A stretch of 64,000 bases of DNA from Candidatus Dormiibacterota bacterium (GCA_963716365.1 OY970307.1:1551253-1615252), one strand, 5' to 3'. Shown: positions 41,519 to 62,157, counted from the stretch's first letter. The notes: generated by a model not told the origin, from the letters alone. Numbers and translations are program-made.

Positions 41519-44032
41519 CTACTCCGAGCCGGCAGAAATCGCCTCCACAACCGCGTGGACACCGTTGGAACCTTCGGCCTCACGCACCTGCGCCAGGTAC
41601 TCGTCGACAAGCTCACGCCCGCGCTGCGGATCGGCAACACTCGCGACCACGTGATACGCGGGCTCGTCGGGATCCGGCCGCACCAGCACGAATCCCCCGT
41701 CGACGTACACCTTGATCCCATCGACAAGGTCGACCGAGTCGGTCCGGTGCCGGTCGAGCAGGATGCGCATGACGCGGCCCTTCACCTCCCACGGGCAGAA
41801 CTCCGTCGCGGTGACATACGCAAGGTGCGGCAGCGCAGCGCGCGCCTCACTCAACGGAACCCCAACCAGCGCTCGCAACTCGAGCAACTTCACCAGCGTG
41901 TACATGGCGTCGAAGGCACCGAGGTGTCCCGGCCACACGAAGCCACCATCGCCGTCGGACGCAAGGATCGTGCCGGCATTGGCGGACGCGCGCAGCACTG
42001 ACGCCGGGTCACCCGCTGTCGAGGCGAACGTCCCCCCGCCCTGGCTCACCACGTCGCTGATCCACATCGGCGTGGCCGCAGGCGCGAGCACCGTCCCCGC
42101 ACCGGAACGCAACAACCAGGACGCGAGAATGCCGAAGCTCTCGTGCACATCCATCACCACGCCGGTGTCGTCGATGAGCGTGATCCGCTCCCCCGTCGGG
42201 CTGATCATGCAGCCGATGTCAGCACGAACCGTCTTGCTGATGAGCGCGGTCTCGTCGGGCACGGTGCGGTGGTGCGCACCCTCGCGCAGCCCCGCGTTGA
42301 GCGGGATGGTCGTCACCCCGAGCCGATTGAGGATGCCCGGCAGCACCTCCGACGCATCGCTGTAGTCGTAGTCGATGAGCACCCGGAAGCCCGCATTGCG
42401 AATGAGGTCGGCGTTCACACTCTTCAACAGATGCGCGGAGTACGCGGCAATCGGCTCGCTGTACTCGATGTCGCCCATCTCGTAGAACGCAGCCCGCCGG
42501 AAGTCCTCGCGGAACAGCAGGTTCTCGAGCTTGCGCTCATCGCGCTTGTCGATCTGCAGCCCCTCGGTGTCGAAGAAACGGATGTCGGCGCTGCGCTGAT
42601 CGAGCGGTGACACGAGCACGTGAATCCCCGCTGCGCAATCGGCGTCGAGCGTTGCGAACTGCGTCACCGCGACCGGCAACTCGCGAACGTCGCGAGCCTT
42701 GCCACCGGCACTGACGATGCCGGAGACGATCGCGCGCTTGATCATTCGCGACGAGCGCGCATGGTCCCGTCCGACCACGACGCACGCGCCCTTCGGCAAC
42801 GTCGCGCCGAACGCGGCGCCAAGTCTGGCGCAGAACTCCGGCGTCAGCTCGACGTTGATGAGGCCGCCGAGCCCGTACGACGAGAACAGTCCCTGACGCC
42901 ACTCGCCAGCCCAGATGATCGACTCGTTGACCGTCGACCCCGGCTCCACGCTCTTGCTCGGCCAGACCTTGACGCCGGCGCGGATCTGCGTCCCCTTGCC
43001 GAGCACGCACTCGTCGGCGACCACCGAGTTCTCCTCGAGCAGGCAGTCGTTCTTGATGGTGACGTTGCGGCAGACGATCGCCTGACGCAACCTCGCGCGC
43101 TCGCCGATGTACGAGTGCGTCCAGACGATGCTGTTGCTGATCTTCGTGTTGTCGTCGACAACGCTGTACTTGTCGATGACAGCGTGCTCATTGAGGATCG
43201 CGCCTGCCTTGAGCTTCACCTCGTCACCGATGAAGGCTGGTCCGTCGAGCTGCACGCCGATGCCGATCTCGACGCCCTCCCCCATCCAGACGTTGCCCTC
43301 GCGGCGCCCCGGGATGTGGCAGCGCACCTTGCCGTCGAGCGCATCCCAGTTGGCCTGCAGGTACGACTGGATCGAGCCGATGTCCGTCCAGTAGTCGTCC
43401 ACGACGATGCCGTGGAGCGGCTCGTGGCGGCGCAGCATGGTCGGGAACACGTCCTGCGACCAGTCGGCGTTGGTGTCGGCCTTGATGTGGTCGAGCACCT
43501 TCGGCTCGATGACATAGATGCCGGTGTTGGCGTGGTCACTGAAGACCTCGCCCCATGACGGCTTCTCGAGGAAGCGCTTGATGTTGCCCTCGTCGTCGGT
43601 GACGACGACCCCGTACTCGAGTGGATTCGGCACCGAGTGCAGCACGATCGTCGCGTGCGAACCGCGGTCCTTGTGCGCGGTCATCACCTTCGTCAGGTCG
43701 ATGTCCGTGAGCGCGTCGCCGCTGATGACGAGAAACGTGTCGTCGAGCAGGTGCGCCGCGTTGCGCACGCTTCCCGCGGTGCCGAGCGGCCGGTCCTCGA
43801 CGACGTACTCGATCTCCATGTCGAGGTCGGAACCGTCACCGAGGCGGTTGCGAATTTCCGCACCGAGATAGGCCAGCGTGACCACCACCTGGGTGATGCC
43901 GTGCTCGCGCAGCAGGCGAAGGATGTGCTCGAGAACGGGCGTGCCCAGCACGGGTACGAGTGGCTTGGGCATGCGGCTGGTGAGCGGGCGCAGACGCGCG
44001 CCTTCGCCTCCTGCCATGACCACTGCCTTCAC
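41519..44032 (-). CDS. bifunctional sugar-1-phosphate nucleotidylyltransferase (mannose-1-phosphate guanylyltransferase-like, with a left-handed beta-helix) fused to a phosphoglucomutase/phosphomannomutase-family domain
   Basis: The N-terminus has [13 protein letters not shown] (the GxGxRL NTP-transferase motif), then hexapeptide repeats. The C-terminal roughly 450 aa have the four-domain PGM/PMM architecture. The canonical TASHNP phosphoserine loop is not evident ([11 protein letters not shown]). Confidence 0.8.
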
Positions 44033-47571: not shown

Positions 47572-48323
47572 GCCGGCGGATCGAGCCCGTCGAGCAGATC
47601 GGGATGCGTGCGCAGTTGCCAGAGCTCGCGGAACGCGCGCACCACAACGCTCACGTTGGCGCCGGTCGCGCGGCCGGTCGTGCGCGGGTAGTGATGGACG
47701 CCGACATCCATGAGGCGGTATCCGCTTCGCCGCGCACGCACCAGGAGCTCGGTGCAGACGAGCGCCCCCTCGGAGTGCAAGCCCTGACCGACCGCTCGAG
47801 GAAACAGCTTGAACGCGCAGTTCACATCGCGCACCGTGGGCCCGAAGAGCAGACGGACGAGGCCGAAGAACGCGCTGTGATACGCACGGCGCAGGAACGT
47901 GTCGTTGCGCCGGATGCGGAAGCCGGACACCACCTTGTCGGGCGCGTACAGCGCGAGCAAACGCGAGATCTCGGTGGGATCGAACTGGCCGTCACTGTCC
48001 ATGTGGAACACCGCCTCGCACGTCGCGGCGTCGAACCCGGTGCGCAGGGCGGCACCGTAGCCGCGGTTGCGCGGGTGCGACACCACCCGCACTCGCCTGC
48101 CGGGCACCGCTGCACTCTCGGCGCGCGCCGCGGTGGCATCGCTGCTCCCGTCATCGATGACGAGGATCTCGAAGTCAGTGATGCCGAGCGCCGCGATGGC
48201 ATCGCCGGTTCGCTGGACGGTCTCGGCGATCACCGCCTCCTCGTTGAACGCGGGAAGCACCGCGCTGATCGAGGGTTGCGCGCGCGCAAGGGACTTGCGG
48301 CCGGGCACCTCAGCTTCTTCCAC
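47568..48323 (-). CDS. GT2 polyprenol-phosphate mannose (or glucose) synthase, DPM1/Ppm1-like
   Basis: SAVLPAFNEE, VIDDGSSD, the DxD motif (FHMDSDGQ) and DVNCAFKLF. The start is one of two GTGs (48308 or 48323). Confidence 0.75.
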   Translation of the reverse strand: MEEAEVPGRKSLARAQPSISAVLPAFNEEAVIAETVQRTGDAIAALGITDFEILVIDDGSSDATAARAESAAVPGRRVRVVSHPRNRGYGAALRTGFDAATCEAVFHMDSDGQFDPTEISRLLALYAPDKVVSGFRIRRNDTFLRRAYHSAFFGLVRLLFGPTVRDVNCAFKLFPRAVGQGLHSEGALVCTELLVRARRSGYRLMDVGVHHYPRTTGRATGANVSVVVRAFRELWQLRTHPDLLDGLDPPA

Positions 48324-50529
48324 GCACGTCGTAGATGATGATGTGATCGGTACGCGCCACGACCGGAAAGCCCTGTTCCGACCACCAGGTGAACCCCGGC
48401 TTTGATTCCACCGCGCCGGGGTCCGAGGTCCGGTTGTCAATCTCGACGTAGCTGATGTCGTACTTGTGCAGCAGCGCGAAGACCGGGCACGTCGCGGCGG
48501 TATCCGTGCACCCCGAGTACATCGCCTGAACATCCGCGTAGCGGGTGCCGATGTCGATGCCGTAGCTCCAGAGCCAGCCCCCATACCCCATGACGCCGAT
48601 GCGACCGGCAACAGCGAGTACAGGGTCGTTGGGACGGCCGAAGGTGAGGAACACGGCGCCCTTCGGCGTCGTCTTCTCGAGCGTCGATGCCAGTTGCACT
48701 TCCTGGGCATTGGCGATCGTGTACGGCCCGGTGATCGCATCCGCCGGCGGCGTCCAGGGCAACAGCCGCAGGACCACAAGCGCGCCGGTGAAGAGCACCG
48801 GACCGACGAGCGCGATGGCGGCGATCCGCGGCCACACCCGCCGCCACCAGTGCGCTGCGAGCGCCCCGACGAGCAGCGCCATGACGAGGTACCAGTAGAC
48901 GAGCAGCTTGGTGTTGTCCCAGTTCCAGGTCTGGAAGACCACGAGGTTGCACGCGGCGAAGATGATCAGTCCGCCCAATGCGAGTTCGAGCAGCGGCACC
49001 GGGAACGCCGCGGTCACGGCGCGCCCCGCGCGCGCCAATTCCCCGCCGGCGCGCCGAGCCAGCATCGCCAGCGCAACGAAGGCGAGGAGCGGCACCGCGA
49101 TCCCGAGGTTGGCGAGCCAGAAGCCCCACCACTGCGCGGTCCCCACCATCCCGATCGCCTGGATCGCCCCGCCGACAAAGTTCCCGACGGACATCTCGAG
49201 ACGACCGCTCGGATCGGCGGTCGTCCCCGCGTTGGAGAGCCACCCCGGTTCGATCCATGGATAGACGTTGGTGCCGTATGGATTCACCGACGAGCCGTGC
49301 GCCGTCAGCGCGAGCTGGGCCAGACGAACCCCGCCGATGAGCATCGCGACGCCGGCGAGCGCGAGCCACTCCCGTCGCCGCCGTCGCCAGAGCAGCACGA
49401 ACAGCAGGATGGAGAGCGCGATAAGCGTCTGCACGTGGACGATCGGCAGGAGGCCGACCAGCACGCCCGCGAGCACGAACGCCTCCCAGCTCCTGCCCCC
49501 CGACGACGCGCCCGAGAGGACAAGCAGCAGCACGCTGATCGCCGCCGCGAAGCCGAAGAGCAGCGTTCGCTGGGGCAGCCACCACGCCATGAGCGGCGTG
49601 TACCACTGCATGTTCGGGAGCGGCGCGGTGCCGCCGTCGGACGGCAGGCCGTCGTAGGCGCGCGGCTGCGCGGCGATCGTGCCGGGCAGGTCGTGGAGCG
49701 TCCAGCCGATGATCGAGAGCCCCGTGCCGGGGTGAGTCACGACGTACTGGAAGGTGCACTGCGTGGCGGTGTAGCCATGGTTCGTGCAGGCGTCAGCAAA
49801 AACCCCGATGAAGCCGAGGCCCCCGCCGATGAAGCAGATGAGCACGGCGATGACCCCGGCACCGACGCCGAGCCCGAGACGGCGCCCAAGCGCGACGACG
49901 AGCATCCCGATCACCACCATGAGCACCGCGCCCGGGATGGCCAGGGCCAGCCCGGGTGACAGGCCGAGCGTGATCAGCGTGGCCGCGTGAAAGTCCGGAA
50001 GAAACGGATAGAGGAGCGTCGTCCCGCTGAACAGCGGGTTGATCGGCGGGATGTTGCCGCCCATCGCGAAGCTCGCGGCGGTCGTGAGGTGCTGTGACCA
50101 GTCGGCCCAGACCGTCGGGTAGCCTGCTTCGAGCCCGCCCGAGTCCGTGTAGACCGTATGCGCGAAGATTGCGGTGACCGCCGCCCCGCCCACGGCCAGC
50201 GCGATGATGGAGAGCCAGGGCGTCTGCTGGGCCCAGCGGTCCCGGGATTCGACCCATGAGGCGTACCAGGTCGACCGGGGATCGACTGTTAACAACGACG
50301 CCGCAAGCGCCCCCGCGAGCGCGATGAGCGGCCCCTCCAGCACGGTTGCGGTGCTCAGCCCGAAGACCAGCGAGAGGCCGTAGGTCACCCCGGAGGCGAC
50401 CAGCACCCCGGTGATCACGCCGATGAGCCCGCGCTCCATGAGCGTCAGGTGGGTGCGGATCAACCCGGTCAGCGCGGCCCCGGCAGCGAGCGTCAGGGCA
50501 GCGTCAAGGATGACGAGGAACGCGGTCAC
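48310..50529 (-). CDS. large GT-C fold integral membrane glycosyltransferase (ArnT/PMT_2-like), putative
   Basis: 739 aa, 13 or more TM segments. The C-terminal soluble domain (GRPNDPVLAVAGRIGVMGYGGWLWSYG...YDISYVEID) resembles the ArnT/GT39-type C-terminus. It overlaps PMT by 4 nt (GTGA). Confidence 0.5.
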   Translation of the reverse strand: MTAFLVILDAALTLAAGAALTGLIRTHLTLMERGLIGVITGVLVASGVTYGLSLVFGLSTATVLEGPLIALAGALAASLLTVDPRSTWYASWVESRDRWAQQTPWLSIIALAVGGAAVTAIFAHTVYTDSGGLEAGYPTVWADWSQHLTTAASFAMGGNIPPINPLFSGTTLLYPFLPDFHAATLITLGLSPGLALAIPGAVLMVVIGMLVVALGRRLGLGVGAGVIAVLICFIGGGLGFIGVFADACTNHGYTATQCTFQYVVTHPGTGLSIIGWTLHDLPGTIAAQPRAYDGLPSDGGTAPLPNMQWYTPLMAWWLPQRTLLFGFAAAISVLLLVLSGASSGGRSWEAFVLAGVLVGLLPIVHVQTLIALSILLFVLLWRRRRREWLALAGVAMLIGGVRLAQLALTAHGSSVNPYGTNVYPWIEPGWLSNAGTTADPSGRLEMSVGNFVGGAIQAIGMVGTAQWWGFWLANLGIAVPLLAFVALAMLARRAGGELARAGRAVTAAFPVPLLELALGGLIIFAACNLVVFQTWNWDNTKLLVYWYLVMALLVGALAAHWWRRVWPRIAAIALVGPVLFTGALVVLRLLPWTPPADAITGPYTIANAQEVQLASTLEKTTPKGAVFLTFGRPNDPVLAVAGRIGVMGYGGWLWSYGIDIGTRYADVQAMYSGCTDTAATCPVFALLHKYDISYVEIDNRTSDPGAVESKPGFTWWSEQGFPVVARTDHIIIYDVRGRS

Positions 50530-52472
50530 CCGATGTCGACCCAGAGCCTCGTTTGCTGGTCAGCGGGACTCTGTGGCATCGCCGTCCAGATTGGATAGAA
50601 GAAGATGAACGCGGCAAGCACGGCGCCGATCACAGCAAAGCTGACAGGCGCGAGCGACACCTGTCTCCCGCGGAACGGGACACGCAATCGCCGTATCGCC
50701 GTCAGCGCGTACGCAAGCGCAAGCGCTGTGAACAGCAGCATGCCAAGCGCGTGGTAGAAGAAGAGCACGCGGCGCTCGTTGCCCGGCACCCACATCATCC
50801 ACGACGCGAAATAGCCGAGCACGATGAACGCCGGCACGAAGCGTCGCGAGATGACCGCGGACAGGGTCACCAAGCCTGCGTAGATGATGACGCCGACGAA
50901 CGCAACCGCGAACCAGATACCCGGATACGTTCGCGCGATCTCGTACTGCGACGACGGTTCCATGTGGAATTTCGTGATGAACTGCGCCGCCGTGTAGGAC
51001 GTGTTGAAGTTGTTGGGGTCGTGGAAACGCACCGCGGCCTGGTAGATGATCATCATCGCCACGAGCGAGATCAGCCCGATCATCGGGACCAGCAGTCGCC
51101 ACCAGTTCGGGCCGCGCGTCACCTGCCAGACGCAGAACAGCAGCGCGAGGATGCCGAGCCACCAGATCGCCGGATTGCCCATGTCGGTGATCTCCGCGAC
51201 CTGGCCCTGCGTCCCTGCTGAGCTCGCGTAAAAGAGCACCGGATGCTCCATGATCGGCCACGTCAGCCAGAGCGACGAGTAGGGATGGCTGTGGCATTCC
51301 TCGGCGTGATAGCGGAGTGACGCGGCGTTGATCTGGATGATGTTGTCGACGGCTTCGACCGGGTTGGGGACGGTGAGTGGACCGACCTTCATCACTGGCA
51401 CATCAAGGGTTTTCTCGGTTCCCGGCAGCCCCGCGACCGCTGGATTGCACCCGTTGAAGAAGTACACATCCGTGTGCTGGATCGTCTCGTAGCGTGAGAA
51501 GCACGCGAAGAAGATCGCGACCGCCACGATGCCGGCGACGAAGTAGTGGAGCACGGCCTTCGGACCCGCCGCGTTGCGCCACATGATCGTCTCGGCGCGC
51601 CCCGGTCCGGCGATGCGCCGCAACCACGGCACGAATGCCGCGATGTACGGCGAGAGCCCTCGGGCGATGATCAGCCCGGCCGCCACCACGAGCGGTGCGA
51701 GCGCGGTGAGCTTCGCCCCGAAGGCGAGGCCCGCGACGCCGGCCATCACGTACAGGGTCGTCCGCCACTGCGCGCGTGTTCGCGCCTGCCAATGTAATAA
51801 GAAGACGTAATAGAAGAGCGCGACGAAGAAGATCGCGATGATGTCGATGACGCCGGTTCGTGACTCGACGAAGGCGAGTCCGTCGAAGCAGATGAACAAT
51901 GCCGTCGTGATCGCGAAGAATCGATTGCGACGCAGGCGCAGCGCGACGAGATACATCATCCCGACGAGCAGGCTGCCGAAGAGCGTCGTGCTCAGTCGCC
52001 AGGTCCAGCTGTTGAAGCCGAAGAACGCGATTGGCGGCGCCATCAGCAACTTCGCAAGCGGCGGTTCAGGATCGAAATACGACTCGGCCGGTTGTCGCAA
52101 GTCCTTCGCGGCGTCCACGGGGAAGTAGATCTCGTCGAAGACGTAGCCGCAGACGTTGATGTCGACGTGATTCACCTTCACACCGCCGACGACGCCCGCT
52201 TTTCCCACCGGTACCGTCGTGCACTCCGCGCCCGATCCGCTCGTCGTCGGGTAGCCGACGCCGTAGGCGTTGAGCGTCCCGGTGCCGCTCAGGAAGTCCG
52301 GCAAGATCGGGCTCGCGAAGCGCAGACCGAAGGCCAGAACCACCAGGGCGATCACGGCGATCACGTCGAATCTGCCCAGGTCGAGGAAGCCTCGCAGGCC
52401 GGCGCGGACGAGCGGCGGACCGCCGTCCGACTCCGGTCCGGGAGACTCGGGAGTGACTACTTCGCTTGACAT
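50526..52472 (-). CDS. pmt: protein O-mannosyltransferase (GT39, dolichyl/polyprenyl-phosphate-mannose--protein mannosyltransferase)
   Basis: 648 aa. Loop-1 VFDEIYFPVDA matches the PMT DE motif (FDEVHF). Multi-TM, with large extracytoplasmic loops. Confidence 0.75.
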   Translation of the reverse strand: MSSEVVTPESPGPESDGGPPLVRAGLRGFLDLGRFDVIAVIALVVLAFGLRFASPILPDFLSGTGTLNAYGVGYPTTSGSGAECTTVPVGKAGVVGGVKVNHVDINVCGYVFDEIYFPVDAAKDLRQPAESYFDPEPPLAKLLMAPPIAFFGFNSWTWRLSTTLFGSLLVGMMYLVALRLRRNRFFAITTALFICFDGLAFVESRTGVIDIIAIFFVALFYYVFLLHWQARTRAQWRTTLYVMAGVAGLAFGAKLTALAPLVVAAGLIIARGLSPYIAAFVPWLRRIAGPGRAETIMWRNAAGPKAVLHYFVAGIVAVAIFFACFSRYETIQHTDVYFFNGCNPAVAGLPGTEKTLDVPVMKVGPLTVPNPVEAVDNIIQINAASLRYHAEECHSHPYSSLWLTWPIMEHPVLFYASSAGTQGQVAEITDMGNPAIWWLGILALLFCVWQVTRGPNWWRLLVPMIGLISLVAMMIIYQAAVRFHDPNNFNTSYTAAQFITKFHMEPSSQYEIARTYPGIWFAVAFVGVIIYAGLVTLSAVISRRFVPAFIVLGYFASWMMWVPGNERRVLFFYHALGMLLFTALALAYALTAIRRLRVPFRGRQVSLAPVSFAVIGAVLAAFIFFYPIWTAMPQSPADQQTRLWVDIG

Positions 52473-52625: not shown

Positions 52626-54140
52626 TCACAGCGCGCCCACGGGGCGGCTGCGCACACGGTCGATCGCGTCGAGCCATGCCGCATAGCCTGCCGTTGGCCG
52701 GACCCCGGACCTCGCCGGCACGAAGCGCCGGCCAGCCTGCCAGGTTGCGGCCGCATCCTCGGGTCCGCTGACCAAGCCGGCGCCGACTGCCGCTAGCATC
52801 GCGGCGCCGAGCGCGGTCGCCTCGGCGGTCGCAGCTCGAGCCACCGGCATACCGAGCACATCGGCCTGGAACTGGCAGAGCGCGTCCATCGCGCTCGCGC
52901 CACCGTCAACACGCAGTTCCGTGAGTGCCTGCCCCGATGCGCGCTCCATTGCCTCCACCACGTCCCGGGTCCTGTACGCCATCGATTCAACGACGGCACG
53001 GACGACATGGGCACGGGTGACTCCGGCGGTCAGACCGAGCAACGCACCGCGCGCGTCGGGGTCCCACCAGGGGGCGCCGAGGCCGACGAGCGCTGGCACG
53101 AAGATGCAGCCGCGACTGTCCGGCACGGACTCGAAGAGCGGCCCGGCATCCGCCGCTGATGCGATGAGCCCGAGGCCGTCGCGCAGCCATTGCAGCGCCG
53201 CACCGGTGACGAAGATGCTGCCCTCGAGCGCGAAGACGTCATCACCGCCAATGCGCCAGGCGACGGTCGCCAGCAGGCCGTCGCCTGGGTCGGGCACCGC
53301 GCCGCCCACATTCACGAGGAGGAACGACCCCGTCCCATACGTGTTCTTGGACATGCCCACTTCCACGCAGGCCTGCCCGAACAGCGCAGCCTGCTGGTCG
53401 CCAGCGATCCCGGTGATCGGGACGCGAAGGCCGAGGAACGCCCCCGGGTCGGTCGCCGCGATCGTCCCGGCACTCGGGTGAACCGCCGGAAGGATCGCCG
53501 GCGGGATGCCAAAGAGCGCGCAGAGGTCCGCATCGAAATCGCCGCGCGCGAGGTCGTAGAGCAGCGTCCGGCTGGCGTTGCTCGCGTCGGTGGCAAACGC
53601 AGCGCCGTCGGTGAGGCGCGCGATCAGCCAGGTGTCCACGGTGCCCGCGCAGACCTCGCCACGTGCCGCATCCGCGGCGAGCGCCGGGTCCTCGCGGAGC
53701 AGCCACTCGAGCTTGGTGGCGGTGAAGTAGGGGTCGAGCAGGAGCCCGGTGCGCCGCCGGATCTCGGGCTCCTCACCGCGGGCGCGATGCTCGGCGCAGA
53801 TCGCGGCACTGCGCCGGCATTGCCAGACGATGGCGGGGGCGACCGGTTCGAGGGTCCCTCGGTCGAAGACCACGAGCGTCTCGCGCTGGTTGGTGATGCC
53901 GATCGCAACCGGCCGTGCGCCGGTCTCGCGGAGCAAACCGTCGCAGGCCGCGAGCACGGAACTCCAGAGTTCATTCGCGTCCTGCTCGACCCAGCCCTCG
54001 TGCGGATGGCTGACCCGGACGTCGCGATGCGCTCGCGCCACGATGTGCCCGTCGGGTCTCACGAGCAGGCAGGTCGTCCCGGAGGTGCCTTGATCGATCG
54101 CAAGCACCAGGGGTTCGCTCACGACCGGGGATGCTGACAT
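52626..54140 (-). CDS. glpK: glycerol kinase (FGGY family)
   Basis: AIDQGTSGT N-terminal motif, GTGSFL, and the full FGGY N- and C-terminal domains. Confidence 0.9.
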   Translation of the reverse strand: MSASPVVSEPLVLAIDQGTSGTTCLLVRPDGHIVARAHRDVRVSHPHEGWVEQDANELWSSVLAACDGLLRETGARPVAIGITNQRETLVVFDRGTLEPVAPAIVWQCRRSAAICAEHRARGEEPEIRRRTGLLLDPYFTATKLEWLLREDPALAADAARGEVCAGTVDTWLIARLTDGAAFATDASNASRTLLYDLARGDFDADLCALFGIPPAILPAVHPSAGTIAATDPGAFLGLRVPITGIAGDQQAALFGQACVEVGMSKNTYGTGSFLLVNVGGAVPDPGDGLLATVAWRIGGDDVFALEGSIFVTGAALQWLRDGLGLIASAADAGPLFESVPDSRGCIFVPALVGLGAPWWDPDARGALLGLTAGVTRAHVVRAVVESMAYRTRDVVEAMERASGQALTELRVDGGASAMDALCQFQADVLGMPVARAATAEATALGAAMLAAVGAGLVSGPEDAAATWQAGRRFVPARSGVRPTAGYAAWLDAIDRVRSRPVGAL

Positions 54141-54171
54141 AGGCGTCAGCCCCATGGACGTGCGCCGCGGT

Positions 54172-55224
54172 TCAGGCCGCTGAGGTCACCGGGGTCTGGG
54201 TGCTCGGGATGATTGCGAGCATGCGGTCGATCGCGCCGCGTGCCTGCGCCGCGATCACCGGATCGACCGTCACCCGCGGGCCCATGCGCTCGAGCGAGAG
54301 CGCGACCTTCTCGAGCGTGATCTTCTTCATGTAGGGGCAGACCGCGGCTTCGGACGCAGCGAGGAATCGCTTGCCGGGGGAGTCGAGCTCCATGCGATGG
54401 ATGATCCCGACCTCCGTCGCGACGATGAACGTGCTCGACGGTGAAGCGGCGGCGCGCCGGACCATCCCCTCGGTGGAGGTGACCACGGTCGCGGGGCCGC
54501 GAAGGTCGCCGGACGACATGCGATACAGCGTCGACGACGTGCAGCCGCACTCCGGATGGATGAGCAGCTCCGCGTCGGGGTTCTCGCGACGCATCGCGTC
54601 GAGACGCTCCGGATGGATGCCGGCGTGGACGTGGCATTCGCCCATCCAGATGTGCAGCTTTCGCCCGGTGACTCGCTCCAGGTGCGCTCCGAGGAACATG
54701 TCCGGGCAGAACAGGATCTCCCGATCCGCGGGGATGGAGCGGATCACTGCCTCGGCGTTCGACGACGTGCAGCAGTAGTCGGAGAGCGCCTTCACCTCGG
54801 CGGTCGTGTTGACGTATGACACAACGACTGCACCGGGGTGCTGTCCCTTCCACTCGCGCAACTGGTCCGCGTCGATAGTGGCCGCCAGCGAGCATCCGGC
54901 CTCGAGATCAGGCAGCAATACGGTCTTCTGCGGCGACAGGATCGCGGCGGTCTCGGCCATGAAGTGGACGCCGCAGAACACGATCACCGAGGCATCGGTG
55001 GCCGCCGCCTGTTGCGACAGCCCGAGCGAGTCGCCGACGAAATCGGCGATGTCCTGCACTTCAGGACGCTGGTAGTTGTGGGCCAGGATCACCGCGTTGC
55101 GCTCGCGCCGCAAGCGTTCGATCCGGTCCAGCAACCCGGTCCGGTCCTCCCTCTCCACGTCAGTCGCCGTGTTGCGTTCTGCTGTGATCACCCCGCCACC
55201 TGTCCCCGACGCCGAGGGCTTCAA
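54172..55224 (-). CDS. nadA: quinolinate synthase A
   Basis: AHNYQ, VHFMAET and CPYMK motifs. 350 aa. Confidence 0.9.
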   Translation of the reverse strand: MKPSASGTGGGVITAERNTATDVEREDRTGLLDRIERLRRERNAVILAHNYQRPEVQDIADFVGDSLGLSQQAAATDASVIVFCGVHFMAETAAILSPQKTVLLPDLEAGCSLAATIDADQLREWKGQHPGAVVVSYVNTTAEVKALSDYCCTSSNAEAVIRSIPADREILFCPDMFLGAHLERVTGRKLHIWMGECHVHAGIHPERLDAMRRENPDAELLIHPECGCTSSTLYRMSSGDLRGPATVVTSTEGMVRRAAASPSSTFIVATEVGIIHRMELDSPGKRFLAASEAAVCPYMKKITLEKVALSLERMGPRVTVDPVIAAQARGAIDRMLAIIPSTQTPVTSAA

Positions 55225-55228
55225 GACT

Positions 55229-55247
55229 TTAGGTCAGATTGACCTAA
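55229..55247. promoter_or_regulatory. perfect palindrome TTAGGTCA-gat-TGACCTAA immediately upstream of nadA (candidate NrtR-type / NAD-regulon operator; GT-N7-AC core)
   Basis: An 8-3-8 perfect inverted repeat, AT-rich in a 70% GC background, 5 to 25 nt upstream of the nadA start codon. Confidence 0.45.
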
Positions 55248-55276
55248 GCAAAGTATAGCAGGGTGTCCCGTCCGCG

Positions 55277-55810
55277 TTAGAGGATCTGCGGGGTCGGGCT
55301 CGCACTCGGCGGAGTCAGGTCGGAGAAGTCGGTTTCCTTCCAGCCGGAGCCGGATCTCACGTACTCCTGGAGGAGGTTCAGCTGCTGCCCCACAGAGGCG
55401 TCCTGATGGTCGACCTTGCCGGCGGCGTTGAGGTAATCGTCCTGCACCAGCGTCATCGTCACATTGAGGATGAGCCGGCTGTCGTTGCAGCCGGCCTGGA
55501 CGACCGTCAGCTGATCGAGGTGGTCGACCTCGCGTTCGGTGAATCCGTGTGCGACGAGCTGTTGCTGCAGGTAGGTGGTGATGGTCGTGAACGCGTTGCC
55601 GGTGGTCACAGCCGAGAGGCCCGTGTGGTGCGGGTCGAGCTCGATCGCGTTGAGCTGGGCGTCGACGCTTGTCCAGATCTGCGTGGCCTGAGACTGCGAG
55701 ACGCAGCCCGTCTTTGCGGTTGACGTCCCCTGCGCGGGCGGCGCGCAGGATGCGAGCATCGCGGCCACGGCGCCCGCAATGGCCGGCGTCACAACGCGGC
55801 GGGATTCCAC
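55277..55810 (-). CDS. putative lipoprotein
   Basis: Start trimmed to GTG 55810 (VESRRVVTPAIAGAVAAMLASC: n-region, h-region, lipobox LASC). Confidence 0.5.
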   Translation of the reverse strand: MESRRVVTPAIAGAVAAMLASCAPPAQGTSTAKTGCVSQSQATQIWTSVDAQLNAIELDPHHTGLSAVTTGNAFTTITTYLQQQLVAHGFTEREVDHLDQLTVVQAGCNDSRLILNVTMTLVQDDYLNAAGKVDHQDASVGQQLNLLQEYVRSGSGWKETDFSDLTPPSASPTPQIL

Positions 55811-55875
55811 GCGTTCGATTGTCGCGCCGTTCAGCCGGGCCGTCCCTCCTGTTCTACTGTGTCGCCGTGCCGGTG

Positions 55876-56409
55876 ATGGGGGTTCTGCTGCGGCCGCGGA
55901 GCACGTTCGCAGCGCTTGCGGACGCTCCACGCATCGTTCTCGGGTTCATCGCGGTGCTCGGCAGCGGCGTGATCGCGCTCCTCCTCGGGTTGCTCGCCAA
56001 CCAGATCGACCACGGCGGCAGCGTCGGGTCGGTGGCATCGCTCGTGCTACCGCTCCTCTTCCTTGTCTACTGGGGTGCCGCTGCTCTGATCGTCGACGCG
56101 GGTGCCGGCCTCGCGGCGCGTGCCGGACGTTGGCGGCAGTACCTCGCGGTGAGCGGTTTCACCTTCATCCCCTGGGTCGCGTTCGGCGTGCTCTCGGTCA
56201 TCGAGGCGCTCGCGGGGACCGGGAGCGTGGCCGAGTCGATCGTGGCCTGGCTGACACTGCCGCTCCTCGCTTGGTTCCTGGTGCTCACGACCCTGGCCGT
56301 CTATGCCGTCTACGATGTGACCCCCTATGTGGCGGTTGCACTGGCGATGCTCCCCGACGCGGTGCTCCTGCTCCTGCTCATCGCCCTGATCGTCGCCACC
56401 AACGTCTAA
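55876..56409 (+). CDS. small polytopic membrane protein (Yip1-domain-like?)
   Basis: 178 aa from ATG 55876, five TM segments. The family call is tentative. Confidence 0.45.
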   Translation: MGVLLRPRSTFAALADAPRIVLGFIAVLGSGVIALLLGLLANQIDHGGSVGSVASLVLPLLFLVYWGAAALIVDAGAGLAARAGRWRQYLAVSGFTFIPWVAFGVLSVIEALAGTGSVAESIVAWLTLPLLAWFLVLTTLAVYAVYDVTPYVAVALAMLPDAVLLLLLIALIVATNV

Positions 56410-56474
56410 TTTCCACCGGCCGCGACTCCGAACCGTGACGATCGGCTCCCCGTGGCGCGCTTCGCGCCTATCCT

Positions 56475-58044
56475 TTGGCCGTGACTCCCGAAGAGCCGCG
56501 CGGGGCCGCGCCGGTCGTCAGCCTGGTCATCCCCACGCGCAACGAGGCGAGCAATCTCCAGCCCCTGGTCGATCGCGTCACCGCGGCGCTCGCGGGAACA
56601 CGCTTCGAGATCTGTTTCGTCGATGACAGCGACGACGGCACTGCGGACATGCTGCTCGAGATGTCGAAGCCGCAGCCGACGGTGCAGCTCGCGCGCACGC
56701 AACCAACAATCCGTTGCCTGCTCCGCCAGGGCGCCGATCGGGAAGGCGGCCTGAGCACCGCTGTCGTCGCGGGTCTGCGCATGGCGCGCGGCCGGTACGT
56801 CTGCGTCATGGACGCCGACCTGCAGCATCCACCCGAGCTCGTCCCCCTCCTCCTCGCCGGGGCCGAGCGTGGCGCGGACCTCGTCGTCGCAAGCCGCTAC
56901 GCGAAGGGCGGGAGCCGCGAGGGCCTCGCCGGCTCCACCCGACGATTCGTCAGCCGAGGCGCGACCATCGTCGCGCGGCTGCTGTTCACCGAAGCGCGGC
57001 AGAGCTCCGATCCGCTCTCCGGATTCTTCCTCTGCCGGCGGGCACTCGTCGACGGGATCGAGTTCCGGCCCGTCGGATTCAAGATCCTGCTCGAGCTGCT
57101 GGTCTGCGTCCCGGAGCTGCGAGTCGTCGACGTTCCGATGAACTCAGTCGGCGCGCGCAGCAGGCGAAAGCAAGGCCACCCCTCGCCAGGGGCTCCTCTA
57201 TCTGCGCCATCTCTGGTCGCTGTTCTTCGATGTCCCGGGATCGGCGCGCGTCTGGAAGTTCGGGCTCGTCGGTGTCAGCGGCCTCTGCGTCTACCTCCCC
57301 ATCCTCGCGGTCCTTATCGGCATCGCCGGGGTGAACCCGCTCGTCGCCTTCGTTCCCGCGTTTGCGCTGAGCGCGGCGTGGAACACCGCGATGAACTGGC
57401 GCCTCACGTTTGGCGACCAGCGCCGCGGTGGTCACGGACCCCGCCACTACCTCGAGTTCGCGCTCCTCAGCGGTTGCGTGATGTTCGCCGTCTTCGCGTT
57501 GCTCATCGGCGCACACGTCGCCTCGGTGGTTGCCGGCCTGGCTGCGGCTGTGGTGGCGATGGTGATCAACGGACTCGTGAACCGCGCGTTCATCCATCGC
57601 GGTCCGGCGGTCTGGGCTGCAATCGCCATCGACCAGGGTGTTCAGGGCGGCCTGTCGCGGCTTGCGGAGGATGTCGGCGCCGACCGCGCGTATCTGCTCC
57701 CGGCTCGCGGCGTGGGCTCGTCCGGTTTGCCGACGGGGCTGCTCGCCCACGTGATTGCCCACAAACGGCCCGTGCTCATCACCGAGGCTGCTTCGCATCG
57801 CGCGCAGCGACGCACCAATATCGAGACGGTGTCGCGGATGCTCCTTCCGGTCGTGCGTGATGACGTCGTGCTCGGGGTCGTGGTGTGTGAGCGGGTCGCG
57901 CCCGGCGGCTTCGACCCCGCGGCGCTCGAGACGGCGACGGTCGCCGTCGAGGCGATCGAACCCGCGCTGATCGCAGCGGCGGCCGACCGTCCCCACCGCC
58001 CGGAGGTGGCTCCGGCCCGGGCAGCGCCCGGACCGGCGAGGTAG
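56475..58044 (+). CDS. GT2 (DPM1-like) glycosyltransferase fused to a GtrA-like membrane domain and a C-terminal GAF-like domain; the frame is interrupted by a +1/-1 shift near 57147-57165 in a (GC)4 run
   Basis: Frame 0 reads LVIPTRNEA...CFVDDSDDGT...VMDADLQHPP...VDVPMNSVGAR. Frame +1 continues AAGESKATPRQGLLYLRHLWSLFFDVP..FGLVGVSG...AWNTAMNWRLTF (GtrA), then ...PVLITEAASH...VLGVVVCER (GAF-like). The conserved VP..F...GESK block spans the shift. Confidence 0.55.
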
Positions 58045-58108
58045 TCCGACGGCAGCGGGGGTCCTCGCGACCGGCCGTCGGTGGAGTGCCGGTCGTTCGC
58101 TGATCCTT

Positions 58109-58645
58109 GTGGCGGGGATCGCCGTCGCAGTCGCGCTGCGTGTTGCCCTTGGCGCACCTGACGCCGCTGCGTCGATGCCCGCCGGTGTGGTCTTCGCGGT
58201 AGCACTCCTCTCGCTCGCCGCAGGTGCGGGATGGCGCGCCGGACGGCCGAGTCTCGCGGCAGTCGGCATCGGCGTTGCCGGTGGCGGCGTGCTGGTCGCG
58301 GCATGGCTCACGTCGCGCACAGGGGTCCCTGTCGACCTCGCTCCCCTGAACCCGGCGATCGCCCTATGGACTCCCGTGGTGGCGCTCATCGCAATCGCCG
58401 AGGAGGTCGTGCTCCGCGGCGTCCTGTTCAACGCGGTGCGCACCTGCGGTGGCGACGGGTGGGCGCTGGCACTGACGACGATCCTCTTTGCGGCGATGCA
58501 TCTCCCGCTCTACGGCGTTGGCGCGTTGCCGCTCGATCTGGCGGTCGGCCTGCTGCTCGGCGGGCTGCGCATCGTGAGCGGCGGCGTCCTCGCGCCCGCC
58601 ATCGCGCACGTCATCGCCGACCTTGCCGGTGGGTGGTTGCTGTGA
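58109..58645 (+). CDS. CPBP family intramembrane metalloprotease (CAAX protease / Abi)
   Basis: EEVVLRG (motif 1 EExxxR), FAAMH (motif 2), HVIAD (motif 3 HxxxN/D). 178 aa. Confidence 0.7.
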   Translation: MAGIAVAVALRVALGAPDAAASMPAGVVFAVALLSLAAGAGWRAGRPSLAAVGIGVAGGGVLVAAWLTSRTGVPVDLAPLNPAIALWTPVVALIAIAEEVVLRGVLFNAVRTCGGDGWALALTTILFAAMHLPLYGVGALPLDLAVGLLLGGLRIVSGGVLAPAIAHVIADLAGGWLL

Positions 58646-59349
58646 GCCGGCGCCACGGCTGGGTTGTCGTCATCGTCGCGGTCGTTGCGCTGGCAACGGT
58701 GTGGCGAGAGCTGCCTGCCGCGTCGCCGCCGATCTACGACGGCAACTGCATCGCCGACCCGTACGTGACGCTGACGAGCCACCCCGCCGCAAAGGGCGCA
58801 ACGACCACATACCCGGCAACGAAAGCACCCTTTCCGGACTCCGAGGTCTACACGGGCGAGACGCCGCCGCAGGCGCAGTTGCTCATGGAAGGCGGCTCGT
58901 TCGGCAACACCGCCGCAGTGACCGTCAGTGTCACGCCGGTTCCAGCGCCTGCGCTGAAGCCGTCCAATGGGACCATCGAGGGCAACGTCTACAAATTCTC
59001 CGCAGTGAACGCTGCGGGGGTCGCCGTTGCGCCTCGCGCGAATGTGCTGTTGACCATCGTGCTTCGCGGGACAAAGTCGGTGCCCGCGCCGATCATCGAC
59101 CGCTTCAACGGCACCGCATGGGTTCCGCTGACCACCCAGAACGGAGGCTGTGGCAACACCTTCATCGCCCCCTCGAAGCAACTGGGCGAGTTCGCCGCCG
59201 TCGAACCAGGGGGAAATTCGCCGTCGCCACCTGCCGCTTCAGGCGGTGGGGTTGTGGGCCCGCTGGTCATCGGTGCCCTCGGCGGCCTCCTGGTCGTCGC
59301 GATCATCGTTCTCTTCAGTCTCGACAGGAGCCGGCGCCGGTCGCGTTGA
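58642..59349 (+). CDS. hypothetical cell-surface protein with N-terminal signal-anchor and C-terminal TM + RRRSR tail
   Basis: GTG overlaps the CPBP stop (GTGA). The hydrophobic N-terminus (WVVVIVAVVALATVW) is followed by an extracellular roughly 190-aa domain and a C-terminal TM (PLVIGALGGLLVVAIIVLF). Confidence 0.5.
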   Translation: MSRRHGWVVVIVAVVALATVWRELPAASPPIYDGNCIADPYVTLTSHPAAKGATTTYPATKAPFPDSEVYTGETPPQAQLLMEGGSFGNTAAVTVSVTPVPAPALKPSNGTIEGNVYKFSAVNAAGVAVAPRANVLLTIVLRGTKSVPAPIIDRFNGTAWVPLTTQNGGCGNTFIAPSKQLGEFAAVEPGGNSPSPPAASGGGVVGPLVIGALGGLLVVAIIVLFSLDRSRRRSR

Positions 59350-59350
59350 G

Positions 59351-60181
59351 CTAGGCGCGAAGCCTCGGTGTGCCCATCCAGCTTTCCATCTCGATGAGCC
59401 AACGCTCGCCGGGCGGTCCCATGCCAGCACCCGGAACGCCGAGGCGCTGAAAAAGTGTTCGCCGTCCACCGAGCCGTTGCGTCAGCCGGTGCGGCAGGCC
59501 GGCCAGCTCTGCGGCCACGTCAAGGGCCGCCTCGTCATCGTCCGCAAGCCCATCGATGAGACCGAGCTCCACGGCTTGCGTGCCAAGCCAGACCTCGCCG
59601 GTGGTGACGCGCGCAAGCGCATCGTCGTCGTAGCCGCGCGCGCTCCGAACCGCACCGGTGAAGCGCTGGAAGATCGCATCGACCAGTTCGCGCTCGCGCG
59701 CCTCGTCTTCCTCTGTGGGCTCGCGCCATGGTGCGCCGAGGTCCTTGAACGGGCCCGTCTTGGTGACGACCATGCGTGCGCCGACACGGCGCAATGCGTC
59801 GACAACAACCGGACGCACGCTGATGACGCCGATCGACCCGACAATCGCGCTCGGAAATGCCAGCACACGGGTCGCACCGCACGCGAGGAAGTACGCGCCT
59901 GATGCGCCGGTGCCCTTGATCCACGCCACCACCGGTTTGCGCGCAGCGAGCCGGCGCACGGCGACATAGAGCTGCTCCGAAGCGATCGCGGTACCGCCGG
60001 GCGAGTCGATCTCGAGGAGCACCGCACGGATGCGTCCGTTGCGACGCGCGTTCCCGATGGTGCGAAGCAACTCATCGGTGCGCACCGCGCCGCCGATGGC
60101 GCCGCGAATCGGGAGAACGGCAATGCGTCTCCTGTCGCGGAGAGCCTGGAGGCGTTCGGAGCCGCGACGTTCAGACAACAC
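59351..60181 (-). CDS. sppA: signal peptide peptidase SppA (S49 family, 36K type)
   Basis: IDSPGGTAIASEQLY and GTGASGAYFLACGA (catalytic Ser region), a Lys region (KTGPFKD). 276 aa. Confidence 0.85.
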   Translation of the reverse strand: MLSERRGSERLQALRDRRRIAVLPIRGAIGGAVRTDELLRTIGNARRNGRIRAVLLEIDSPGGTAIASEQLYVAVRRLAARKPVVAWIKGTGASGAYFLACGATRVLAFPSAIVGSIGVISVRPVVVDALRRVGARMVVTKTGPFKDLGAPWREPTEEDEARERELVDAIFQRFTGAVRSARGYDDDALARVTTGEVWLGTQAVELGLIDGLADDDEAALDVAAELAGLPHRLTQRLGGRRTLFQRLGVPGAGMGPPGERWLIEMESWMGTPRLRA

Positions 60182-60244
60182 CCCTGCATGCTAGTCCGCT
60201 CGTCCTTCCCCAGAACGCGGTCCTGTCCGGCACACTACGCAGTC

Positions 60245-60808
60245 ATGGAGAGAGGACGGCGCTTGGAGGAGCGCCGCCACGCCCACCGTCGGGGTGAGCG
60301 CGGCACGCATCCGGTACTGATCGGCATCGCCGCCGTGATCATTCTCGTGGTGCTCGTGGTCATCTTCCTGCTCCTCCAGAAACCGAAGCAGGTGACGCCG
60401 ATCGCAGTGCTGGGCAACAGCCCATCGGCAAGCGCCGCGGCGACACCGACCGCTGTTCCAGTGACCGTCGCGCCTACCGCTGCCCCAACGGCTGTGTCAA
60501 CCAAACCGGCATTCGCGAGCTTGGATATCCCCCACACGGTGTCGTGCCTCGACATGAAGGGACAGCTGATACAAGGAAACGTGTACCCGCCAATCTCGTG
60601 GAACGCTATCAACGCAACTGGGATCACGATCTCGATTGACGGTCCCGGAATCTTCGGTTCATACGGCCCGTCGGGTTCGTTTACTCCTCAGGACGAAACA
60701 ATCCCCTTCTCGTGCTCGGAACCGTTCAAGCACACCTACCTATTCACCACGACCGGCGGGTCTGGTCCCGCCGCCACGAAACAGGTAACGATCACCGCCA
60801 CCCACTGA
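60245..60808 (+). CDS. hypothetical membrane-anchored protein
   Basis: ATG 60245 (MERGRRLEERR...), a single TM (VLIGIAAVIILVVLVVIFLLL), a Pro/Ala/Thr linker and a roughly 110-aa extracellular domain. Confidence 0.45.
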   Translation: MERGRRLEERRHAHRRGERGTHPVLIGIAAVIILVVLVVIFLLLQKPKQVTPIAVLGNSPSASAAATPTAVPVTVAPTAAPTAVSTKPAFASLDIPHTVSCLDMKGQLIQGNVYPPISWNAINATGITISIDGPGIFGSYGPSGSFTPQDETIPFSCSEPFKHTYLFTTTGGSGPAATKQVTITATH

Positions 60809-60820
60809 GCGCGAGCGAGG

Positions 60821-62005
60821 TCAGCGCTCGCCGGCGGTCTTTGCCTGGACGGCCTCGGTCAACGTCTTGTTCACCGGCTGGCCGCTGACGTCCATGACGA
60901 GGCCGATGGTGCTGCCGTCACTCCAGCCGCAGAGTGAGACGGCGGTCTGCGGTGCAGGTCGCGTTGCCGGTGAGCAGACGAACTGGCTCCCGTCCATCGT
61001 CGTCTTGACGGTCTTGGTCTTGTCGACGGTGACGCCGTCCATCTTCAGGCCTGTCGAGAAGTCATCGAAGAACTGGCTGCTCGTCGACGCGATGTCCGGA
61101 CCCTGGGCGAGCAGCACGACCAGCGTCGGATGACCGGAGACCCCGTAGACGCCGCTGACGACCGTGGTCGCGCCGTACGCGAGCATCACCTGCTTCATCT
61201 GCTGCGTGACCGCCGCGGCCGCGGGCGTGCTGATGGGAGCGAGCGCGCCGACACTCGTCGGGGTCTTGATCGTGGCCGCCGGGGTTTCCCGGCCCTTGAT
61301 GTACTCGAACGCCGCGAACCCGAGGATCGCGACGAGGACGAGCGTCAGGAGGATGCCGATCACCGCGCGGCCCGACGGACGCCGGCTTCGTGGCGCTGCG
61401 GGGACGTCCCAGGCTGACCGGTCCTTGGTCATCGCGGGTGTGGTGCGCGGCGACCACCCGGGAGTGCCCTCCTCGGTGCGACCGCGGAGCGTGTGCTCCT
61501 CGTCCTGGCTGCGGATGTTCCAGCCTTTGCCGCCTGGTGCACTGACCGGACTGACTTCTGCGGCCGTGGGCCGGAAGCCGATCGTCGCGGTGGACATCCG
61601 CTGCCCGACACCGACGGGCGCCGACGCGGGCACGGCTTCGAACGCATGGGGCTTCGACCCAGGGTCTGGCGGCGCAGGCTTTGAGGCGGGGACGGCCTCA
61701 AACGCGTGGGGGTTGGACCCAGGGTCTGGCGGCGCAGGCTTTGATGCGGGCACTGCCTCGAACGCATGAGGCCTCGGTCCAGGATCCGGGGTGCCGGCAA
61801 GCGCGTCGGCGACGAGTGCGCGGGTGGCAGCACTCCCGCTGGGAGCGGGCGGTGCGGGCGCGCGTGGCGTCGTCTCGAACGCGAGACCGGCGGCAGCCGA
61901 GTCCGGGGCAGGATCGCTCGCGGAGGCGCGTTCGGATCGCGAGGGGGCTGGAACCTTCTCGAACGAGAGCGAAGGTCCGCCGCTCTCCGTGGTCTGATCG
62001 GTCAT
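60821..62005 (-). CDS. hypothetical bitopic membrane protein with N-terminal cytoplasmic 20-aa tandem repeats (KPHAFEAVPASKPAPPDPGS x3)
   Basis: A repetitive Pro/Ala-rich N-terminal region, TM AVIGILLTLVLVAILGFAAF, and a C-terminal roughly 170-aa extracellular domain. Confidence 0.5.
   Translation of the reverse strand: MTDQTTESGGPSLSFEKVPAPSRSERASASDPAPDSAAAGLAFETTPRAPAPPAPSGSAATRALVADALAGTPDPGPRPHAFEAVPASKPAPPDPGSNPHAFEAVPASKPAPPDPGSKPHAFEAVPASAPVGVGQRMSTATIGFRPTAAEVSPVSAPGGKGWNIRSQDEEHTLRGRTEEGTPGWSPRTTPAMTKDRSAWDVPAAPRSRRPSGRAVIGILLTLVLVAILGFAAFEYIKGRETPAATIKTPTSVGALAPISTPAAAAVTQQMKQVMLAYGATTVVSGVYGVSGHPTLVVLLAQGPDIASTSSQFFDDFSTGLKMDGVTVDKTKTVKTTMDGSQFVCSPATRPAPQTAVSLCGWSDGSTIGLVMDVSGQPVNKTLTEAVQAKTAGER
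61621..61795 (-). repeat. 60-bp tandem repeat, 3 copies (third diverged), inside the 60821..62005 coding region
   Basis: Printed lines 61621-61680 and 61681-61740 align column for column. 61741-61795 is a diverged third unit. Confidence 0.7.
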
Positions 62006-62157
62006 CGTTCGCCCTTGGCGTGCGCGCCCTTATCCATCGCGATACGGGCCAGCCTATGTCGCCTGCAGTGCACTCCTCCCAACGTCAGGGCACTGCTGCC
62101 GGAGTGTCACGGATGTGTCACGCCGACCTGACGCGATCTGGTCATAGCGGGAAGTGG

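Follow-up and report, generated by a model that had tools for sequence, protein, structure and literature searches.

The window, a 64,000-nucleotide stretch of a Candidatus Dormiibacterota genome (GCA_963716365.1), carries at 56475-58044 on the plus strand a glycosyltransferase gene whose coding sequence is divided between two reading frames, one nucleotide apart. Frame A holds the GT2 catalytic part, and frame B holds the GtrA-type membrane domain together with a C-terminal GAF-like domain. The surrounding gene order, PMT, (FGGY), NadA, Yip1, the glycosyltransferase gene, a CPBP protease, a 235-aa protein and an S49 peptidase, is conserved in related genomes. The features of the locus and its neighbourhood are the following.

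41519..44032, minus strand: sugar-1-phosphate nucleotidyltransferase (GMPPB-like)-phosphomannomutase fusion, 837 aa (PF00483, PF25087, PF02878/9)
50526..52472, minus strand: PMT-family protein O-mannosyltransferase (PF02366/PF16192), ~4 kb from the glycosyltransferase gene
55876..56409, plus strand: Yip1-family membrane protein (PF04893), conserved upstream neighbour in 38/80 loci
56475..57140, plus strand: frame A, 5' portion of the gene, running from the start codon to Met222 in ...VVDVPM
~56520-57050, plus strand: GT2 catalytic domain (PF00535), residues 16-192
57140..57145, plus strand: GAACTC, a corrupted GACTC (reverse complement of GAGTC) and error-prone site; near-identical records read GACTC
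57141..57142, plus strand: AA, one base surplus, which causes the frame break; a single A in all relatives and all near-identical records
57142..58044, plus strand: frame B, 3' portion of the gene, reading TQSARAAGESK... and on through interface helices, TM domain and GAF domain to TAG 58042-58044
57151..57158, plus strand: (GC)4 run, not the shift site; the same in the window and in the intact-gene records, relatives differing by substitutions only
57256..57594, plus strand: GtrA/DPMS-type four-helix TM domain (PF04138), residues 261-373 of the repaired protein
57607..57987, plus strand: compact C-terminal GAF-like domain (PF01590)
58175..58645, plus strand: Rce1-like CPBP intramembrane protease (PF02517), conserved downstream neighbour in 38/80 loci

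Frame A starts with TTG at 56475 (gene calls in near-identical records start with GTG at 56481, protein VTPEEPRG) and reads correctly through ...LRVVDVPM, the last correct Met being ATG 57138-57140. Beyond this Met it runs on out of frame, stop-free, to 57860 (~240 further codons), and an exact-protein look-up with the resulting 461-aa product returned no match. Frame B is closed upstream by TGA 57139-57141, opens as TQSARAAGESKATPRQG... and translates from 57142 as TQSARAAGESKATPRQGLLYLRHLW..., remaining open for ~300 codons with 92% identity to other orthologues; it also contains a GTG-started ORF at 57331-58044. Both translations bear out the proposal of the initial annotation that each frame holds one half of the conserved VP....R..GESK block and that a 1-nt shift splits one gene, since the two frames are one nucleotide apart and the orthologues are single ORFs.

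The lesion itself is one surplus A at 57141/57142, where the window reads ATGAACTCAG and every relative reads ATGAC(T/C)CAG. In a DNA alignment with five relatives, CCGATG-ACCCAG stands opposite CCGATGAACTCAG in the window, and in an alignment with 21 orthologues the proteins read VPM-TQ[AS]xRxAGESK, so that the correct reading follows frame A as far as the Met and frame B from Thr57142 onwards. The shift had previously been placed at 57147-57165 and ascribed to slippage in the (GC)4 run; both alignments instead locate it 6-10 nt upstream. The run lies downstream of the shift, and near-identical records whose gene is unbroken have it unaltered; it is therefore not the shift site. A shift within the run, for instance one caused by a missing GC unit (+2 nt also restores the frame), was considered and rejected, because frame B already matches the orthologues from Thr57142, upstream of the run, and because the run is unchanged in the intact records. 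At the lesion there is no slippage-prone tract; the tract that changes is A versus AA.

Using neighbouring window genes in exact-protein look-ups, we found three near-identical records of this region, referred to below as twins.

ENA ERZ25039518 contig_1816 (1.27 Mb), locus L082: window 40526-62472, 99.95% identity, with 9 substitutions and 2 one-base indels
ENA ERZ25039482 contig_12266 (1.29 Mb), loci L083 and L084: window 11830-33518 and 53350-64000, 99.91% and 99.94% identity
Logan assembly ERR11523669, locus L085: window 55074-61684, 99.89% identity

All three have the single A, reading CCGATGACT..., and in all three the region is one called gene encoding a 520-aa protein with GT2, GtrA_DPMS_TM and GAF domains. 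The frame B translation of the window is identical to the corresponding part of this product save at 57572, a site linked to the sequence motif described below. In a 13-kb comparison with the 90%-identical locus L001, the indel in this gene was the sole isolated frame-changing one seen in a confidently coding region, a comparison that is uninformative on platform errors.

We then asked where the window and its twins disagree. Pooling the comparisons with L082 and L083 (43,636 nt) gave 31 differences, 19 of which lie inside GAGTC or GACTC, the two strands of one motif, in one of the two versions (binomial p = 8e-28, with an expectation of 1.4% of compared bases inside any GANTC). Where the motif is hit by a substitution, its first G is replaced by A (C>T when read on the opposite strand), and the one-base indels all touch the motif (4/4). 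Additional twin comparisons yielded more such differences, at 56237, 58249, 58253 and 63499. The particular change GACTC>GAACTC (reverse complement GAGTTC) recurs as well: the window has it at 57142 and 31006, and the twins have it at the sites matching window 60006 and 63694. The second occurrence in the window affects a Kelch gene.

30886-32283: Kelch beta-propeller gene, 465 aa in the twin; the insertion at 31006 removes its first ~40 codons
31005..31010, plus strand: second GAACTC, GACTC in the twin by direct comparison, breaking the 5' end of the Kelch gene

An exact-protein look-up with the 429-aa ORF at 30994 found no match because the second GAACTC error has shortened this ORF too. In L082, GAGTTC at window position 60006 shortens the 276-aa S49 peptidase to 225 aa, the window copy being intact. 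The dnaE gene, which is essential, encodes the alpha subunit of DNA polymerase III; in L084 an insertion at window position 63694 splits it between two frames, and in the window the same site is GAGTT, turning the Ser of the conserved FQ.ES motif into Leu. Each assembly carries errors, at differing subsets of the same motif sites and in one case within an essential gene, a distribution that is not explained by real strain variation. When the 39 GAACTC/GAGTTC hexamers of the window were scanned by one-base deletion, only the one at 31005 was clearly supported, in a scan that is noisy at 66% GC, where long antisense open frames are common.

Independent support for a long-read error comes from other species. 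The gene is conserved in all 80 related, species-representative loci and is frameshifted in 4 of the 21 long-read MFD MAGs versus none of the 59 short-read assemblies (Fisher p ~0.004, hand-computed from the counts). The breaks in these loci (L028, L031, L035 and L064) occupy four different positions, and that in L035 is again a GAACTC. MFD MAGs were assembled from Nanopore data alone and polished once with Medaka (PMC12313526), and the contig_N names and megabase lengths of the twins fit Flye long-read metagenome assemblies; this naming style and the related MFD MAGs tie the twins tentatively to Microflora Danica. Methylation-induced ONT errors have been reported to appear as strand-dependent A/G and C/T ambiguity, with RA/TY as the minimal shared context and the ambiguous R preceding the A (Lohde et al. 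2024, PMC11610573), and a 2026 preprint found G2A/A2G substitutions as well as insertions to be more frequent in native DNA than after amplification. The errors described here resemble the former (PMC11610573) in recurring at one short motif, in their strand-symmetric R/Y ambiguity 5' of A, seen here as [G/A]A, and in differing between assemblies of the same genome; they differ in that the GAGTC/GACTC motif and the GACTC>GAACTC insertion are specific to the present organism, in which methylation is presumed.

Based on these comparisons between assemblies, we consider it highly probable that the frame break is a motif-linked consensus error of long-read (Nanopore-type) sequencing and not a feature of the organism. 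The organism itself would carry a single intact gene of ~520 codons, and the insertion would be an artefact of consensus calling in which GACTC was read as GAACTC. The GACTC/GAGTC site is probably N6-adenine methylated, which would make it a source of miscalls; we infer that the window stems from a Nanopore assembly and that methylation causes its errors. The initial annotation had left the choice between a sequencing error, a pseudogene and a phase-variable or programmed event, and the intact twins and the recurrent signature argue strongly for the first and against the others. A pseudogene would require the surplus A, which the given window sequence does contain, to be a real, recent and private insertion, leaving a GT2 fragment of 222 aa followed by residues read out of frame. 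We regard this as improbable: the gene is unbroken in three records of 99.9% identity, exactly this GACTC>GAACTC change occurs at other motif sites, including the dnaE break in a twin, and the gene is conserved in 80/80 related loci. Moreover, comparison of frame B with the twins and orthologues showed no additional disabling lesion downstream of the break, the 300 downstream codons being undamaged and matching the twins except at one motif-linked site.

Two abutting long frames and a nearby (GC)4 run might also be taken to indicate a programmed +1 ribosomal frameshift or a phase-variable slipped-strand switch, with the full-length enzyme made conditionally. This is very unlikely, since a programmed site would be conserved and the shift occurs in no orthologue or near-identical record, while the frameshifts of other MAGs fall at four different positions and in long-read assemblies only. 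The site, CCG AUG A ACU, offers no slippery re-pairing option and no zero-frame stop or pause codon, frame A being open to 57860; for phase variation, A versus AA is far too short for slippage, and the (GC)4 length is equal in broken and intact versions. It is hardly conceivable that the two frames are separate genes for a soluble GT2 enzyme and an independently translated GtrA-GAF membrane protein, as the GTG-started ORF in frame B would allow. The split would cut through the VP....R..GESK block that is conserved in the catalytic domain, translation from 57331 would begin within the first pair of TM helices, each of the >100 orthologues is one polypeptide, and the structural homologue PfDPMS from Pyrococcus furiosus is a single chain. 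With a motif-linked consensus error as the preferred explanation, the consequence extends beyond this gene: GAGTC/GACTC miscalls and insertions yield false pseudogenes and false amino-acid changes in the present genome, and any frameshift, pseudogene or SNP called in the window, or in long-read MAGs of a similar kind, should first be compared with this motif.

Next, we analyzed the repaired protein. GT2 and GtrA come to lie in one polypeptide only once the surplus A is removed, as in the twins. On the window frames, Glycos_transf_2 (PF00535, frame A, E = 4e-26), GtrA_DPMS_TM (PF04138, frame B, E = 1.5e-12) and GAF (PF01590, frame B, 31.4 bits vs a cut-off of 22.4) all score above their Pfam cut-offs, in agreement with the domains initially proposed; the GAF_2 profile stays just under its threshold (26.2 bits vs 28.6). 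The closest solved structure is PDB 5mlz (E = 4.3e-60), which covers residues 12-368 and thereby the catalytic domain, the interface helices and the four-helix TM domain. The VMDADLQHPPE segment, containing the DxD/DAD metal- and donor-binding motif, is identical in 5mlz, and 22 orthologues all retain both D113 and D115. For the full-length protein, AF2 gives a model of moderate confidence (pLDDT 69) with four long TM helices at residues 257-371 next to a GT-A core.

The C-terminal 150 residues, modelled separately with AF2 (pLDDT 79, pTM 0.73), fold in the order helix, strand, helix, strand, loop, two long strands, helix, in keeping with the GAF fold, in which helices at both termini flank an antiparallel sheet. 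In a Foldseek search of the PDB, the top 37 matches to this model were all GAF domains, including those of PtsP, PDE6C, DosS/DosT, PDE2A and NifA, with modest scores (probability 1.0, TM ~0.5, E ~1e-3). The suspected GAF identity of the C-terminus is thus confirmed by both the PF01590 hit and the exclusively GAF structural matches. A nearly invariant TEAxSHRxQRRTNIE sequence occupies the loop preceding the long strands, and one may speculate that it forms a ligand or contact site. Because four TM helices follow a cytoplasmic catalytic domain in the PfDPMS topology, the GAF-like domain is expected to be cytoplasmic as well.

A search with the repaired protein returned >100 single-ORF orthologues of 500-523 aa with 57-92% identity and the same three domains, nearly all from Candidatus Dormibacteria/Dormibacterota MAGs; the orthologues thus carry the GAF extension on an uninterrupted frame. 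When 1.84 billion cluster representatives were searched with a profile built from the GAF region, 311 matched with E < 1e-3, only 16 of them with E < 1e-30. The strong matches are gene fragments or ~500-aa proteins with the domain at residues 360-490, and the weaker ones are giant multi-GAF proteins. Seven of the ~500-aa representatives carry GT2 in a Pfam scan, five of the seven also GtrA at E <= 1e-3, and the named members of their clusters are Chloroflexi/Dormibacteria-type MAGs. Judged by these searches, the GT2-GtrA-GAF fusion is narrow in distribution and standard in the Dormibacteria lineage. A literature search combining GAF, GtrA and glycosyltransferase retrieved nothing relevant on the fusion. 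The view that a GAF domain on a polyprenol-phosphate glycosyltransferase is unusual therefore holds in so far as the fusion is undescribed in the literature searched; within Dormibacteria it is the standard form of the enzyme. Apart from the break, this is an unexceptional gene of a family conserved in Dormibacteria, and its GAF extension is an undescribed, lineage-typical variant of PfDPMS.

The intact gene most likely encodes a PfDPMS-type polyprenyl-phosphate hexose synthase, with a predicted specificity for mannose that follows from the similarity to PfDPMS, the adjacent PMT gene and the nearby genes for GDP-mannose supply. The protein would consist of a cytoplasmic GT2 domain, interface helices, a four-helix GtrA/DPMS TM domain and a C-terminal cytoplasmic GAF-like domain. 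With PfDPMS (5mlz, 5mm0, 5mm1) it shares a GT2 domain bearing DADLQHPPE, the interface helices, the four-helix TM domain and the single-chain organization. It differs in the addition of a ~125-aa C-terminal GAF-like domain and a Pro/Ala-rich tail, and in its acceptor, which is presumably a bacterial polyprenyl phosphate and not dolichyl phosphate. The GMPPB-like-phosphomannomutase fusion likely supplies GDP-mannose, and the PMT enzyme, which uses polyprenyl-phosphate mannose, is the likely consumer of the glycosyltransferase product. A GT4 gene, another GT2 gene and a 739-aa protein without a Pfam match also lie within 15 kb. This gene context supports, short of proof, a polyprenyl-phosphate mannose synthase that would feed PMT and other GT-C enzymes.

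The superposition of the C-terminal model on the GAF domains of GAF-regulated enzymes (PDE2/5/6/10, PtsP/EI-Ntr, DosS/DosT, NifA) suggests regulation by ligand binding or dimerisation, which for the present enzyme would take place on the cytoplasmic face of the membrane. It differs from these domains in its low identity to them (10-20%), in being compact, with four to five strands, and in an invariant polar ExxSxRxQxRxNI loop that matches no assignable ligand class. We tentatively propose, as a possibility that we hold at somewhat below even credence, that the standard polyprenyl-phosphate mannose synthase of Dormibacteria is of the PfDPMS type with a putative cytoplasmic GAF sensor gating catalysis. 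Were the GAF domain to bind a metabolite or second messenger and gate catalysis in this way, it would represent the first direct small-molecule control of lipid-linked mannose supply and would bear on protein O-mannosylation and envelope glycan synthesis. The GT2-GtrA/DPMS-GAF architecture is hence a reasonable target for asking whether the synthesis of lipid-linked sugar donors is ligand-regulated.

Two further systems invite comparison. In the Ppm1/Pmt pathway of Mycobacterium and Corynebacterium, a GT2 polyprenyl-phosphate-mannose synthase feeds a GT-C protein O-mannosyltransferase of the PMT family. Dormibacteria likewise pair the GT2 gene with a PMT gene, the two being syntenic in 33/80 loci, with PMT located within the 6-kb flank. 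Ppm1 relies on another kind of membrane partner or domain for its anchoring and is not known to have a GtrA-type or a GAF domain. The undecaprenyl-phosphate glycosyltransferases GtrB/ArnC (5ekp, 9hwj, 8vxh) also combine a GT2 fold with a polyprenyl phosphate acceptor; they are much more distant, with E ~1e-8 to 1e-12, and form tetramers with a two-helix C-terminal anchor in place of the GtrA-type four-helix domain and GAF.

The GACTC>GAACTC change that breaks the frame of the glycosyltransferase gene recurs in the window at 31005-31010, where a second frameshift of identical signature leaves a Kelch beta-propeller gene truncated at its 5' end relative to the twin ERZ25039482:contig_12266, one of the 99.9%-identical records of this DNA. 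The features discussed here together with the GAGTC/GACTC motif, the site class of inferred methylation-linked long-read consensus errors, are:

about 30886-32283, + strand: Kelch beta-propeller gene, 465 aa in twin ERZ25039482:contig_12266
59351-60181, - strand: S49 peptidase gene, intact in the window (276 aa)
63690-63700 (about 2487 in twin L084), - strand: motif site in dnaE (DNA polymerase III alpha), compared between window and twin

The S49 gene is the reciprocal case: the window copy is intact, and the copy in twin ERZ25039518:contig_1816 (L082) is broken by an extra T (GAGTTC) at window position 60006, which truncates the call to 225 aa. In dnaE, the window has GAGTT at a GAGTC site, a Ser>Leu change within FQ.ES of the polymerase, and twin L084 has GAGTTC there, which shifts the frame; both readings appear to be wrong at one shared motif site. 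Single-base differences between window and twins were found at 13225, 17613, 24790, 24940, 26224, 30892 and 63499, with AACTC, AAGTC or GAGTT in the window and an intact GACTC or GAGTC in the twin. The window is probably miscalled at these positions, which may introduce false amino-acid substitutions.

In other MFD MAGs assembled from long reads, the copy of the glycosyltransferase gene has between one and three single-base indels, at differing sites:

L031: 6932, 7161, 7361
L028: 6192
L064: 6536
L035: 7149

Their contexts (CGATCG, GCCGGC>GCCTGGC and GAACTC) suggest other motif-linked errors in these genomes. The database protein P0057 (707 aa) joins the glycosyltransferase to the downstream CPBP domain (PF02517) and, at a query coverage of 73%, shows no match to GAF; the joining probably reflects a further artefact of frameshift or read-through rather than a real fusion.

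Elsewhere in the window, a single 837-aa chain (41519-44032, - strand), adjoined by a GT4 gene, carries a GMPPB-like sugar-1-phosphate nucleotidyltransferase fused to a phosphomannomutase/phosphoglucomutase and may provide a one-protein route to GDP-mannose. A 739-aa ORF (48310-50529, - strand) overlaps the stop of the PMT-family protein O-mannosyltransferase gene by 4 nt; it has no Pfam match and is present in 23 of the 80 related loci, with PMT beside every copy, and its product may act as a partner of PMT or be a second glycosyltransferase. A tandem repeat at 61626-61783 (60-nt unit, 2.6 copies, 82% identity) falls within a 394-aa ORF (60821-62005, - strand) that has no Pfam hit, a homologue of which is kept beside the S49 gene in 27 of the 80 loci.
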